Notes: a model not told the origin generated them from the sequence alone. DNA of 64,000 nt from Candidatus Latescibacterota bacterium (GCA_965223905.1 CBDCXV010000011.1:1024001-1088000), one strand, 5' to 3'; positions 30,001 through 36,271 are shown, numbered from the stretch's first letter. Made by a program: numbers and translations.

Positions 30001-30065
30001 GCCAGCGCGCTGCAGATGAGGCGTTCGAGGCCGCGTTCGGAGGTGTCGGTGGTCCTAACGGTCAT
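27054..30065 (-). CDS. hsdR: Type I restriction endonuclease subunit R
   Basis: D...FVNGLPVFTFELKN nuclease motif, HSAGSGKS, DEAH, FTATP, KFQTGYDEP, QTLSRLNR; GGAGG RBS. Confidence 0.96.
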   Translation of the reverse strand: MTVRTTDTSERGLERLICSALAGHPCDPPPGPTAGEPPASYGGVGWAGGNYHDYDREYCVDLAQLSAFLRATQPEAAESLALPEAGPTRRRFLARLQGEISKRGSIDVLRHGIRHGAHDLDLFYGTPSADNPEAQERFRQNRFTVTRQLRYSRDETQRALDIGLFVNGLPVFTFELKNSLTKQTVDDAVQQYQRDRNPREKLFELGRCVAHFAVDESEVQFCTHLSGKASWFLPFNRGWNDGAGNPPNASGIKAGYLWREVLSRESLTDILENYAQVVESKDEKTGRRKRTQVWPRYHQLDVVRRLLADAGDHGAGGRYLIQHSAGSGKSNSIAWLAHQLIGLARDGAPAFDSIIVVTDRLILDKQISDTIRQYSQVSATMGHADRSGDLRRFIESGKKIIISTIQKFPFILDEIGNEQRRRSFAIIIDEAHSSQGGQTSAAMARALSEAGEEEEGETFEDRINRLMESRKLLPNASYFAFTATPKNKTLEIFGAPDPQADGTIRHHAFHSYTMKQAIQEGFILDVLSHYMPVNSYYKLAKTVEEDPEFDVRKAQKKLRRFVEGSGHAIGLKAEIMVDHFHDQVLAQNKIGGAARAMVVTNGIERAIQYYHAIRDYLQQRKSRYQALVAFSGEHEFGGEKVSEASLNGFPSVKIAAQFQEDPYRFLVCADKFQTGYDEPLLHTMYVDKTLSGIKAVQTLSRLNRAHPRKHDVFVLDFFNDADTMSEAFADYYRATILADETDPDKLHDLQADLDGAQVYSEEQVDDLVRRYLGGAERDQLDPILDACVAVYKSDLDEDGQVRFKGNAKGFARTYAFLSSVLPYNDPGWEKRSIFLNLLIPKLPAPEEEDLSKGILDAIDLDSYRVEKQAMQKILLADEDAEVDPVPAAGGGSLTEPELDRLSNILRTFNEHWATDWDDADRVGQLITETIPTRVAADTAFRNARQNSDRENTRIEGDKVLIRVMNSVMKDDAQLFKKFMDDPGFKRWMADTVFGLAYEQAAAG

Positions 30066-30156
30066 ACCTGCCTCCTCCGACCAGACCATTCAATCACGTG
30101 TAAGTCCGTCGTAGTCCTGCCGGTTGGACCAGTCCCTTTTAGAGTGCTGGGACTTT

Positions 30157-31245
30157 CTACATTGCAAAGCAGAAGTCGTGCTCCTGGAACTGTGACACCT
30201 TCGCGCCGTGAAACGAGTTCGCCTGCGTTTTGTCGACTTCGGAAGTGACCCCATCGTCGACAAGCTGTACCTCGCGGCCAAGACCTCCCGTCAAGGAACG
30301 CAGCAATCCCTCTCTCAACTCGGGTTTATTCAATCGGCGCCCTCCGATCCGAATGACCATCCTCGCCCGTCCTGCCAATAGAGGTCCCAGTCCCGCCATG
30401 GACGCCTGGATGAATGTCCAGTAATTGTCCTTGTTGCGGTGTCGATCGTCTCCCCGCCCACGCAGCACCAACGGCTCCCCGTCGAGAAACCACAGCCGCA
30501 GCCACTGATCCTCGCGGTAGTTGGTGGTGTCGAGGTACGGCGGCGAGGTAATCACGTCGGTAACTCGACCTGTAAGGTCCGGGAACTTGCAGGCGGCCAG
30601 ACGAGCGTCGGTCTGAATCACCTTCGCGGATCCCTCCGGGGGAGGGGTCCGGAATCGGTAATCGAGCATCCCTTCGAGGATCTCGAAGACATCTCGCGGC
30701 GGCGGGGTATATCCGAATTGCCTCCACCATCGAACCGAATAGTCAGGCTTCGTGCTGATAGTGCGCGGCATGCGGTTGCTGAAGTAATTGGGGGAGCGGT
30801 GGGACTCTCCATGCAGCGCACCGAGACACAACGCCGCGATGAACCGGTCGTCCCTGCGGTTGCGCCAATCCAGAATGGATCGCAGATAACGCACCTGCAG
30901 CAGTGTGTCCCGGTGGAAGCAAAGGTCGAAGAACTCTCCTAACCTGCCCTGCCACCCCAAGTCGTCCGGCTCGTGGCATCCCTGCCTCAACTCGTTGAGT
31001 CGCGTCCTGACTTTCGAGAATCCAGGCGGGTTGCTCTTGGCTCCCGAGACGCAGACCGCCACCGGGTTCAGATCGCAGCCGGCCGCTGCCCGGCCCTGGA
31101 GCAGCGCTTGAAAAACAGTCGTTCCCCGCCCGCAGTACGGATCGAAGACAATCCCGTTGTACCGACTCGCCGCAAGATGCTTCTCCACAAAGCACTCCGG
31201 GAACATCGCGAAGTAGGGACAGATCGAGTGGAACCGGTGTCTCAT
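30157..31245 (-). CDS. N4-cytosine/N6-adenine DNA methyltransferase
   Basis: HSICPYFAMFP, SAM-binding FDPYCGRGTT N-terminal, catalytic TSPPY C-terminal. Confidence 0.88.
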   Translation of the reverse strand: MRHRFHSICPYFAMFPECFVEKHLAASRYNGIVFDPYCGRGTTVFQALLQGRAAAGCDLNPVAVCVSGAKSNPPGFSKVRTRLNELRQGCHEPDDLGWQGRLGEFFDLCFHRDTLLQVRYLRSILDWRNRRDDRFIAALCLGALHGESHRSPNYFSNRMPRTISTKPDYSVRWWRQFGYTPPPRDVFEILEGMLDYRFRTPPPEGSAKVIQTDARLAACKFPDLTGRVTDVITSPPYLDTTNYREDQWLRLWFLDGEPLVLRGRGDDRHRNKDNYWTFIQASMAGLGPLLAGRARMVIRIGGRRLNKPELREGLLRSLTGGLGREVQLVDDGVTSEVDKTQANSFHGAKVSQFQEHDFCFAM

Positions 31246-32240
31246 GCCGCTGCACTCGCCCGGTTGCGGTAGTCCGTGACCCAGCAGGCGGCCTCCACCA
31301 GCCGGTCGTACCCTTCGATGTTCACGCCGGTCACCACGAGCCGATCAGCCTCCTCGACACGACGGGGCACCCGCAGCCGGTGCAGCACGTTCCCCATCAC
31401 GCGAACATCGTCGATGAACTGATCGTCGGCCCTCGCGAATGGTACGATCATATAGATCATGAAGTCGGTCACCGGCTGGGTCCTGAACCATCGGCTCTTG
31501 AACGCATCCATATGCCCCTTGAGAGACTTCGACCAAGCGTTTTGGCCGGTTGCGACCTGCGCTGCGGCGAGAGGGAACCCCGGCAGCCCATCGGGTTGCG
31601 GACGGGCAGCGAAAACATCGATCTGATCGTCTTTTGGCTGCCGCGGGGCTCCGGTCTGCGGCTCCACCCCGCCGTCGCGGAGGATTTCCCAGATCTGTTC
31701 CAGCTTGTTGAGGAACCCCGACCCGCCGGGTCGGGGAAAGCCGAAAGACCATGCTTCCCCCTGAACCTCTGCGGCCAAAGCCGCCGTCGCGAAATATTGA
31801 AAGTACTCCCGCAATTTCCCCACCTCTGCACAATCGGGATGAAGACCCGAACCATCGAGCATCGGCGTGAAGGCCCGCAGGTTCGAAAGGACAAGGCTCA
31901 GGATGTACGCTGCCTGCCCGAACGATTCATCGTCCATCTCGTACCACAACAGGTTTCCGTCAGAATCAAGCCTGAAGGGATAAGCCGAGTCCAACGCGTC
32001 CTGTCGCGTCTCGATCCTGTTCACCGCGCTTGAGACAATCTCTTCCTCTCCCTCCTGCATTTCCCCTTGCAGATCGCCATGATCCTCCGCCGCCCCGAGT
32101 GTCGCAGCGTTGGCGAGTTCAGAAGTCAGGACCGTGGAGTCATCTGCAAAGAATGCGGTTAACTCCAGAAAATCGGCGGCGAGATCGACATCGATCGACG
32201 GTCCGGAAACCGCGTCTATTGGTAGATAAAGAGGCATCAC
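31242..32240 (-). CDS. Hypothetical protein with putative PD-(D/E)xK restriction-endonuclease-like C-terminal domain
   Basis: PKDDQIDV...AQVATG..W.K pattern; 4-nt overlaps with both neighbours. Confidence 0.55.
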   Translation of the reverse strand: MMPLYLPIDAVSGPSIDVDLAADFLELTAFFADDSTVLTSELANAATLGAAEDHGDLQGEMQEGEEEIVSSAVNRIETRQDALDSAYPFRLDSDGNLLWYEMDDESFGQAAYILSLVLSNLRAFTPMLDGSGLHPDCAEVGKLREYFQYFATAALAAEVQGEAWSFGFPRPGGSGFLNKLEQIWEILRDGGVEPQTGAPRQPKDDQIDVFAARPQPDGLPGFPLAAAQVATGQNAWSKSLKGHMDAFKSRWFRTQPVTDFMIYMIVPFARADDQFIDDVRVMGNVLHRLRVPRRVEEADRLVVTGVNIEGYDRLVEAACWVTDYRNRASAAA

Positions 32241-35640: not shown

Positions 35641-35643
35641 GCG

Positions 35644-35935
35644 CTATGCCTCGTCTCTCATCGGGATGGGGACTTCCCGTACTTCACCGGGCTGAATTTC
35701 ATCCAATGCAATGCGGATGGCTTCCGTTCTCTGCGAGATGCGCGGCCAAGCGGTGTTCATCAAAACGACCACGGCCACCTGTCTGTTTGACATCGAAGCC
35801 GACTTCTTCAGCACGGTCCAGCAAGTCTCCGTTGGACAAGCCGTCCCAACCGCGCTCCCTGGCCTCTTCAACGACATGGCCGAAAAGCCGGAGGCGCAAC
35901 TGCCTGGGTGTCCCGTTATCAAACAGGATGCGCAT
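35644..35935 (-). pseudogene. DUF5615-like PIN toxin with internal deletion/frameshift
   Basis: MRILFDNGTP...NGDLLDRAEEVGFDV then shifts frame into NRQVAVVVL..W; the usual T.D..L..QQN segment is absent. Confidence 0.8.
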
Positions 35936-36158
35936 GAACGACCTTTGCCCGGAGCTCCTGCGCCACGTGCTCCAGCACCGCCTTCACCTCCGTTTCATCC
36001 ACTCCTCCGAACCACTCGATGAAGTCGTGGATGGTCGCACCCGCAGCAAGGTTCTCGAAAAGGGCGTATACCGGCAAACGGGTGCCGGTAAACACCCAAT
36101 TGCCACTCACCTTGCCGGGTACGCTTTCGACCGCCGGGCACTTGCTCCAGTCTGTCAT
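35919..36158 (-). CDS. DUF433 antitoxin
   Basis: PGKVSGNWVFTGTRLPVYALFENL. Confidence 0.88.
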   Translation of the reverse strand: MTDWSKCPAVESVPGKVSGNWVFTGTRLPVYALFENLAAGATIHDFIEWFGGVDETEVKAVLEHVAQELRAKVVHAHPV

Positions 36159-36271
36159 GCTGTCAACTCCTTTTCGATGGTGTATCAGCTACCGGCCCAA
36201 CACTGCACGAGGCAAACAACCGAAACTGCGGGTGCAGCTCCAATCCGTCATATGGCCACCACCTATTTTTT

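Follow-up and report, generated by a model that had tools for sequence, protein, structure and literature searches.

Copies of the hsdR start are stacked between cargo modules in a Type I restriction-modification locus of a Latescibacterota bacterium

Integron cassette arrays are one-directional rows of small, often toxin-antitoxin units that are bounded by repeats and have a fixed anchor. Tandem integrative elements at a gene end are marked by duplicated att cores that restore the gene, and the constant length of their repeat is set by the integrase that they carry. Homology-facilitated illegitimate recombination, in which natural transformation combines one homologous anchor with an illegitimate join, is known from laboratory crosses. 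Here we describe an array that resembles each of these in part and that lies in a Type I restriction-modification (R-M) locus (hsdM, hsdS, and hsdR) of a Candidatus Latescibacterota bacterium (GCA_965223905.1). Modules of non-hsd genes stand between hsdS and hsdR, and a dead copy of the hsdR start, referred to here as a scar or stump, lies at each boundary. The window, that is, the whole stretch of 64,000 nucleotides (nt) analysed, covers positions 1024001-1088000 of contig C11 (CBDCXV010000011.1) in a 7.92-Mb draft genome of 11 contigs with an estimated contamination of 5.1%; coordinates are window positions. Defence genes in Type I clusters are already known: TgvAB sits within the hsd operon of Vibrio cholerae VPI-2, and embedded candidates of Payne and colleagues are cited in the same account (PMC11411939). 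Hotspots between conserved flanks are also already described, and a truncated hsdR appears in staphylococcal elements. In tandem paralogue clusters, the unit of evolution has been described as running from the 3' end of one open reading frame (ORF) through the spacer into the 5' end of its neighbour (PMC2568036). Within the library of literature that was searched, we found no description of stacked hsdR-start fossils. What is new is a stacked record of target-gene starts that recurs across lineages with one hsdR family.

As in the TgvAB case, the non-hsd defence genes lie between hsd genes in the same orientation and form one operon-like cluster, and one cargo gene (DUF1828) matches a PADLOC candidate, PDC-M24B. 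While the TgvAB account in PMC11411939 concerns one embedded system and its function, several modules are stacked here with an hsdR-start fossil at each boundary. What appears to recombine is not a gene but a block in which one gene ends and another starts, as in the clusters of PMC2568036; those described there are paralogous, lipoprotein-type, and of one species, whereas here cargo precedes a single-copy restriction gene. The likeness to integron arrays lies in one-directional small cargo units, a repeated element at their bounds, and a newest unit that possibly stands beside the fixed anchor. However, no IntI-type recombinase lies nearby, the repeat is a coding sequence of variable length rather than a structured attC, and the junctions are heterogeneous. 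With tandem integrative elements the locus shares direct repeats of a gene end that separate the insertions and a gene that is intact at one end of the array, but the repeat measures 25, 26, and approximately 90 nt in the window and up to approximately 930 nt in relatives, and no integrase or integrase remnant was seen. The defining features of both were looked for and were not found, and the array is neither an integron nor a row of integrative elements. Homology-facilitated illegitimate recombination would fit the variable junctions and the conserved hsdR arm; unlike in laboratory crosses, it would here be read from genome fossils, repeated at one locus across lineages. Like a defence-island hotspot, the locus has variable content between conserved flanks in close relatives, including an empty site.

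We found that the top direct-repeat family between 26 and 40 kb consists of four hsdR starts of 30 nt, all direct copies: the live reference at 30025-30054 and three dead copies at 33607-33636 (scar 1, 87% identical), 34572-34601 (scar 2, 93%), and 35610-35639 (scar 3, 70%). A 24-nt core, with up to 3 mismatches allowed, gave 3 window matches against 0 expected from 100 shuffles. The peptide motif T[DN]T[ST][EGD].G[LIMF] has 5 matches in the genome translated in six frames, and 4 of these lie in the array on one strand. The repeat, core, and peptide-motif searches therefore agree on what an earlier note on this DNA had proposed, namely dead hsdR 5' copies between hsdS and the live hsdR. Each copy starts at, or within a few nt of, the stop of the preceding gene, as hsdR would behind the gene before it in an operon, and the three scars directly follow the last gene of a different module, with the stops of DUF5615, DUF1828, and PIN confirmed; scar 3 begins a few nt past the TAG of the DUF5615 gene. 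Counting scar ends in nt from the ACC GAC anchor of the hsdR start, we found that scars 1 and 2 match the live hsdR for 25 and 26 nt, so that these two short scars do break within one nt of each other, after GGCCTCG and GGCCTCGA. The ATG of scar 2 opens a 36-codon frame. Scar 3 had been taken to be merely RTTDTSGKGLER; instead, it extends over approximately 90 nt, is frameshifted, and has lost both its frame and its start codon.

All array features lie on the minus strand. Read 5' to 3', the locus begins with hsdM, two small ORFs, hsdS, and an ISKra4-like insertion sequence (IS), which is followed by DUF433, a broken DUF5615 gene, scar 3 with a 29-nt palindrome, DUF1828, scar 2, RHH/PIN, and scar 1. 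A 3' remnant of hicA, a frameshifted hicB, a ParB-like gene, an ORF of 332 amino acids, a DNA methyltransferase (MTase), and the live hsdR complete the row. The Type I R-M core (hsdM, hsdS, and hsdR) is present, intact, and co-oriented, and the non-hsd genes between hsdS and hsdR (DUF433/DUF5615, DUF1828, RHH/PIN, the hicAB remnant, and the ParB-like/unknown/MTase triad) have the same orientation. With the modules and the IS in between, hsdR stands 7.8 kb from hsdS.

The locus was compared with related hsd loci chosen by HsdR match, of which the best 80 of 224 relatives were kept (L001-L080; full-length HsdR matches at 65-97% protein identity to the window HsdR), and with two same-genus genomes, G103 (by coordinates the same as L001) and G104. 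The closest locus, L001, belongs to a single-contig chromosome, a metagenome-assembled genome (MAG) labelled Latescibacterota, and its HsdR is 97% identical. In its modules and three scars, and in their order, it agrees with the window; its array occupies the same chromosomal site between the same flanks, and its scar 1 junction is identical. The flanks show 88-95% identity to those of G103 and G104. They lie 19 kb apart in the window, 47.7 kb apart in G103, and approximately 1.6 kb apart in G104, which represents the empty site without this hsdR. Furthermore, among metagenome contigs from four runs (stretches without listed contig cover carry no meaning), scar 1 is bridged by contigs of X12, X16, and X17 and scar 2 by a contig of X17; neither X16 nor X17 belongs to the study of the best holder, and they come from two other studies. 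Because the same array occupies the same site in an independent same-genus genome, it is not a misassembly, and the possibility, raised in the earlier note, that strain variants had been merged is contradicted by this order and by the bridging contigs. Since the split from G103, the window has lost 40 nt in the DUF5615 gene and gained the IS, and L001 has acquired frameshifts in DUF1828. The segment from inside scar 2 to mid-PIN has a different ancestry in the two: RHH and PIN are each 64% identical overall between the window and L001, while the window copies are 92-94% identical to those of L002 and L010. This difference indicates that scars and modules keep recombining. The L001 counterpart of scar 2 is at least 73 nt and up to approximately 130 nt long, so that the 26-nt break in the window is either not the original junction or independent, and it can no longer be taken as the primary break.

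Extra hsdR 5' fragments were found in 17 of the 80 related loci. Thirteen were detected by tblastn at E<=0.05 (L001, L002, L005, L008, L009, L011, L013, L014, L016, L022, L023, L025, and L041), and the others by blastn of the scar 3 block (L003), a 26-mer search (L018 and L029), and the motif (L070); three multi-hit loci (L021, L062, and L068) represent a split live hsdR and were left out of the count. The possibility that relatives have no such scars, which the earlier note had held out as a point against it, therefore does not apply. Every tblastn and 26-mer fragment lies on the hsdR strand. Across 66 sources, the 26-mer search gave 13 extra plus-strand matches, 0 minus-strand matches, and 0 for two reversed controls; 1 of the 13, at L002:4343, has an unrelated frame and was discounted as a chance match. 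The exact degenerate motif is present in 44 of 168 genomes of the phylum (reversed control, 0), and in 6 of these 44 two copies share a strand and lie within 10 kb. Scar 3 with the same end also occurs in L001, L016, L003, L009, and L022. Indeed, a block of DUF5615, scar 3, the palindrome, and a 22-nt sequence termed motif X is found in six genomes, and scar and junction travel with the module.

As anticipated, cargo content and order vary between relatives. Three of the four modules immediately precede a live hsdR in some of the genomes: PIN does so in L002, L010, L033, and others, DUF1828 in L008, and the MTase triad in L029 and L043. All arrays close with a full hsdR that is homologous to those of relatives. 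Records with this HsdR family carry labels of many phyla, among them Latescibacterota, Spirochaetia, Gemmatimonadota, Acidobacteria, several proteobacterial classes, Chloroflexota, and one archaeon, a Methanoregulaceae MAG. That HsdR is common to so many phyla at these identities points to frequent transfer of hsd genes across lineages. At the nucleotide level, 150-nt windows of hsdR are mostly 70-94% identical to 16 aligned relatives, and the identity is higher for L001.

Many variants that carry hsdR and differ in cargo are present in the samples. Contigs in which PIN meets hsdR at the repeat, where 17-18 letters are common to both sides, were found in 3 of 4 metagenome runs, and contigs that join hsdS to hsdR in all 4, along with forms that are without DUF1828 or without the IS. 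In the four runs, summed contig depth was 600-4300 over the 5' part of hsdR (29500-30100) and 0-140 over the triad (30100-33400). Many contigs diverge exactly at 30054 into differing upstream sequences (8-19 loose ends per run, with low agreement).

Other hsd gene ends are also duplicated among the relatives. In L001 the hsdR 3' end is repeated on the far side of a DUF433 gene (L001:14409-14479), hsdS 3' fragments occur at L005:10062-10172 and L007:2643-2795, and isolated hsdM 3' fragments (residues approximately 584-652) occur in five loci (L009, L010, L012, L022, and L033). These duplicated ends indicate that stumps are not confined to the hsdR start. L008 holds two to three tandem hsd systems, an hsdR 5' fragment of approximately 900 nt, several hsdM fragments, and a decayed second hsdR.

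If insertion were site-specific, conserved breakpoints would be expected; instead, scar ends are spread from approximately 25 to approximately 930 nt (Table 1), and the sequences past the scars are mutually unrelated, with no common att-like motif. In the window, scar 1 is followed by a piece of hicA (its last approximately 25 nt), scar 2 by a unique spacer, and scar 3 by the palindrome. A hicA piece (last approximately 35 nt) also follows the scar in L002/L005, where the join arose independently, and the 3' end of hsdS (last approximately 60 codons) does so in L005 and perhaps also in L007. An attC-like imperfect palindrome with a conserved core does not recur at the boundaries, since one has the perfect 29-nt palindrome and the others have none; the sole repeat common to all is the hsdR coding start itself. 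Profile searches for tyrosine and serine recombinases alike found none in the window, in agreement with the earlier note, and no module ORF has a recombinase domain by Pfam, PADLOC, or NCBIfam, the only mobile-element gene being the ISKra4-like transposase. Likewise, no tyrosine recombinase was found in the G103 island (2727564-2775230; 47.7 kb), which holds approximately 28 kb more than the island in the window. Across the genome, PF00589 has 19 matches, none of them in the window; the nearest lies at approximately C11:384 kb.

Our data suggest that recombinase-free, hsdR-anchored accretion of modules probably built the array. Incoming DNA would come from related Type I R-M loci with different modules, with a homologous crossover in the conserved hsdR; because hsdR is common to many lineages at 65-97% identity, it may serve as the long downstream homologous arm. 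The upstream join would be of one of two kinds, either illegitimate, where the initial codons of the resident hsdR offer a brief stretch of similarity, or a homologous pairing with an hsdR fragment already present. A resident 'A-hsdR' and an incoming 'B-hsdR' would thus give 'A-stump-B-hsdR', which matches the observed structure, and each event would place a new module and its own hsdR start beside the working gene while the old start is stranded as a dead stump. Stepwise addition next to the live gene, as proposed earlier, fits the window, and of the two mechanisms that had been put forward the data favour the second, homology-facilitated illegitimate recombination. The window may represent three steps on an L016-like ancestor (DUF433/DUF5615-scar 3-X-RHH/PIN-hsdR): DUF1828 would have joined right after motif X, the RHH/PIN block would have come with its own upstream region, and a block starting inside hicA would have brought the ParB-like/unknown/MTase triad. 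An existing stump might then act as a short homology arm for later exchanges, which would explain both the swap that begins in scar 2 and the contig joint exactly in the repeat. Long stumps may be unstable, since they would recombine with the live copy and the cargo in between would be lost, which may be why most survivors are short.

A more far-reaching version, which we offer tentatively and think possible rather than probable, is that the first codons of hsdR are a portable recombination handle. Plain homologous recombination, in which the stump is the short arm and hsdR the long one, would copy the stump-cargo-hsdR block into any genome with a related hsdR, giving a recombinase-free, integron-like platform in which a preferred break around codons 12-13 (25-28 nt) would mark the minimal surviving arm. 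Such a platform, if real, would spread toxin-antitoxin and defence modules across phyla. Arguments on how defence islands assemble still draw largely on which genes occur together. In this array, the module boundaries keep datable fossils of the target gene, from which one can read in what order events took place, where the joins lie, and what was swapped later, and compare lineages that share one restriction enzyme family. If the pattern holds in a larger survey, a widely shared defence gene may itself be the place where additional defence and toxin-antitoxin genes land, without the need for a dedicated recombinase, and repeated gene starts on one strand would be a signature for such stacks in other operons.

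Several observations weigh against recombinase-free accretion as set out above. No actual donor was found, and sliding hsdR identity against the 16 relatives gave no clear crossover point for the last insertion. The polarity of the array is not as strict as had been claimed: L025 and L029 have a scar downstream of the live hsdR, in L029 joined to flanking host DNA, and addition is thus not always beside the live start. The junctions of scar 1, scar 2, and L018 lie within 4 nt of one another, 25-28 nt after the anchor, which may reflect a preferred break. For this cluster, the rough p is approximately 0.2 among approximately 10 short scars spread over 150 nt; moreover, our searches are blind to scars much shorter than 24 nt, and since 25-28 nt is just above this detection limit, a falling length distribution would pile up there. 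Apparent microhomology at junctions, for example GGCCTCGAAC in hsdR against GTGCTCAAAC in hicA, was read by eye from alignments. The contig joints, especially those with a short side, may stem from other organisms in the samples. Finally, one-step insertion and tandem acquisition followed by deletion are not distinguishable here, and L008 shows that tandem, decaying loci exist.

In this second scenario, whole hsd loci would have been acquired in tandem, and deletions would have removed the older hsdR body, hsdM, and hsdS, leaving the hsdR start fused to the region upstream of newer cargo. We regard it as unlikely, if well short of negligible. The tandem loci, fragments, and decayed second hsdR of L008 are what it expects, as are partial hsdM duplicates in L013 and L015. 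L005 joins a stump to the last approximately 60 hsdS codons, as a deletion from the first hsdR into the second hsdS would; L014 joins hsdR codons 6-169 to an SMC-like C-terminus; and in L029 an old hsdR was cut at approximately 41 nt and joined to host DNA. However, tandem acquisition and deletion alone leave unexplained that most stumps are shorter than 150 nt of a 3-kb gene, which would call for selection against long stumps, and no hsdM or hsdS fragment lies between the window scars. The enzymology would in any case be the same, with no dedicated machinery, and the two accounts differ in the number of steps only.

The stumps might instead be kept for a function, such as translational coupling or re-initiation, leader peptides, or portable homology arms under selection, a reading drawn from sequence features that we consider improbable. 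The ATG of scar 2 overlaps the upstream stop and opens its 36-codon frame, scars 1 and 2 retain 87-93% identity to the live copy, and the swap between the window and L001 begins in scar 2, which therefore probably served as crossover point. Against a function, scar 3 has lost its start codon and frame, scar sequences differ more between the window and L001 than does the flanking end of DUF1828, and no conservation was found beyond what descent explains. A still smaller chance remains for an integron-like system with a recombinase encoded elsewhere, a site in the first approximately 30 nt of hsdR, and promoter-bearing cassettes that each bring a replacement start. The 1-nt spacing of the two window scars, the L018 scar 2 nt further, the shared strand of all scars, the joint exactly in the repeat with 17-18 letters common to both sides, and the 19 tyrosine-recombinase matches in the genome are in line with such a system. 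Nevertheless, the range of scar lengths, the lack of a common sequence or palindrome after the scars, an L001 scar 2 of at least 73 nt, the absence of a recombinase from the window and (tyrosine type) from the G103 island, and scars downstream of the live gene all argue against it, and the same scar and junction travel with a module across genomes as inherited fossils would. The site-specific, integron-like reading of the earlier note is accordingly not supported. That assembly merged strain variants of one locus is barely credible, since the draft state and estimated contamination of the source genome and the several locus variants in the samples are outweighed by the single-contig chromosome with the same modules, scars, and flanks and by the bridging contigs from two other studies.

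The earlier note had also read a graded decay into the modules, and this holds in part. The farthest module does have an internal deletion, of 40 nt in its DUF5615 gene (DUF5615a): the L001, L003, and L022 copies read through an extra LITTDQGIQHQQN stretch, and contigs of X14, X16, and X17 have 40 extra letters at 35790-35793. The next module was said to be frameshifted, but the window DUF1828 reads in one stretch, with its residues 46-289 aligned to positions 11-254 of 256 in the PDC-M24B profile. The D-to-N change in PIN is confirmed, as the residue is D in all 18 of 18 homologues that cover the column. In the nearest module, described as intact, the three large genes can be aligned from end to end with those of L029 and L043, while its head is formed by a cut hicA and a frameshifted hicB; the newest module thus opens with a broken hicAB. 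Identity of the stumps to the live start, from nearest to farthest, is not monotonic (87%, 93%, and 70%), and since 30 nt are too short, it cannot be used as a clock.

Table 1. Features of the hsd locus, and scar ends in the window and in related loci
Feature	Position	Strand	Evidence or description	Scar end (nt from anchor)
hsdM, 812 amino acids, extra C-terminal ~160 amino acids	39711..42149	-	Pfam HsdM_N + N6_Mtase; PADLOC MTase_I E 2.5e-233	
hsdS specificity subunit	37827..39251	-	Pfam Methylase_S; NCBIfam type I S-subunit matches	
ISKra4-like IS; transposase 36288-37715	36272..37827	-	NF033572 E 1.4e-53, below curated cut-off	
DUF433 gene, antitoxin-like partner of oldest module	35919..36158	-	Pfam DUF433 E 4e-11, profile 2-54 of 56	
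DUF5615 (PIN-like) gene with 40-nt internal deletion	35644..35935	-	No Pfam match for 78-amino-acid ORF	
Scar 3, hsdR 5' end, frameshifted	35551..35641	-	First 30 nt 70% identical to live start	~90 (scar 3 family)
Perfect 29-nt palindrome, GTAG...CTAC, directly after scar 3	35522..35550	-	Read from sequence	
Motif X (22-nt RHH upstream motif), directly upstream of DUF1828	35479..35500	-	Sequence match	
DUF1828 gene (PADLOC candidate PDC-M24B), intact	34600..35478	-	Pfam DUF1828; PDC-M24B E 6.9e-97	
Scar 2, ATG + 26 nt of hsdR	34572..34603	-	ATG overlaps DUF1828 stop (ATGA)	~26
Spacer after scar 2: stretch Z (92 nt, 34480-34571), second motif X (34458-34479), RHH leader	34411..34571	-		
RHH antitoxin (VapB-like)	34048..34410	-	Weak Pfam RHH matches	
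PIN (VapC-like) toxin, D-to-N at conserved acidic residue (SYWNGAIL)	33647..34060	-	Pfam PIN E 2.7e-10	
Scar 1, GTG + 25 nt of hsdR, 8 nt after PIN stop	33607..33638	-		~25
hicA 3' remnant (~25 nt), then frameshifted hicB (start 33568)	33420..33606	-	Alignment with intact copies	
ParB-like protein	32237..33370	-	N-terminal half resembles PD-Lambda-5_A (PADLOC E 9e-23, residues 8-193)	
332-amino-acid protein, family unassigned	31242..32240	-	No Pfam, PADLOC, or NCBIfam match	
DNA methyltransferase (N6_N4_Mtase, Type II-like)	30157..31245	-	Pfam E 2.6e-10; PADLOC MTase_II E 7e-26	
Live hsdR, 1003 amino acids, ATG 30065, GGAGG 7 nt upstream	27054..30065	-	Pfam HSDR_N, SWI2_SNF2, ResIII, T1R_D3	
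Whole island between conserved flanks	23170..42210	.	Flank matches in two same-genus genomes	
L018 scar				~28
L029 scar				~41
L002/L005 scar				~45
L005 second scar				~68
L023 scar				~70
L001 scar 2				At least 73, up to ~130
L041 scar				~170
L014 scar			hsdR codons 6-169 joined to SMC-like C-terminus	~500
L013 scar			Then PIN-like piece	~750
L008 scar			Then region upstream of DUF1828	~930

Families were assigned from Pfam, PADLOC, and NCBIfam profiles (Table 1). Most relatives match HsdM over residues 1-651 only. Its C-terminal extension (residues approximately 652-812; 39711-40190) has no Pfam hit, relatives carry similar sequence as separate pieces, and we suspect a PIN-like domain there. 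The inverted repeats of the IS are 23 nt long (36272-36294 and 37805-37827) and 87% complementary. The IS sits at the hsdS stop codon, where it replaces the last few hsdS codons, and IS-free contigs from two runs join 36259 to 37830 and 36185 to 37846. The window DUF433 is 100% identical to the L001 copy.

The 29-nt palindrome after scar 3 occurs once in its own genome and is also present in L003 (twice, once approximately 55 nt upstream of hsdM), L004, and L072. A REP-type nature of this palindrome and of spacer Z was considered and rejected, as each occurs once in the genome. Motif X occurs twice in its own genome, each time within the array, and is present in 11 of the 80 loci, usually approximately 71 nt upstream of the RHH start. 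It thus appears to be an RHH upstream sequence and may act as a promoter; the alternative that it is a gene C-terminus was rejected because of this placement and because coding was not consistent. The true start of DUF1828 is probably internal to the 292-amino-acid ORF. The window RHH is 92-93% identical to those of L002, L010, and L016.

The hicA and hicB remnants were aligned with intact copies from L002, L003, L005, L007, L010, and L016; L003 encodes a full 61-amino-acid HicA and a 73-amino-acid HicB. The ParB-like protein has no Pfam match at E<0.01. For the 332-amino-acid protein, an Atlas search gave a weak lead to a HaeII-type restriction endonuclease cluster (score 0.83), and the label restriction endonuclease is unproven. 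Downstream of hsdR, the island contains an intact DUF433/DUF5615 pair (26065-26704; Pfam E approximately 1e-19 each) and an SMC/ABC-type ATPase of 824 amino acids (23607-26081) with PADLOC matches to the mad3 and LmuB profiles. In L014, a fragment of a similar SMC-like ATPase is fused to the hsdR stump.

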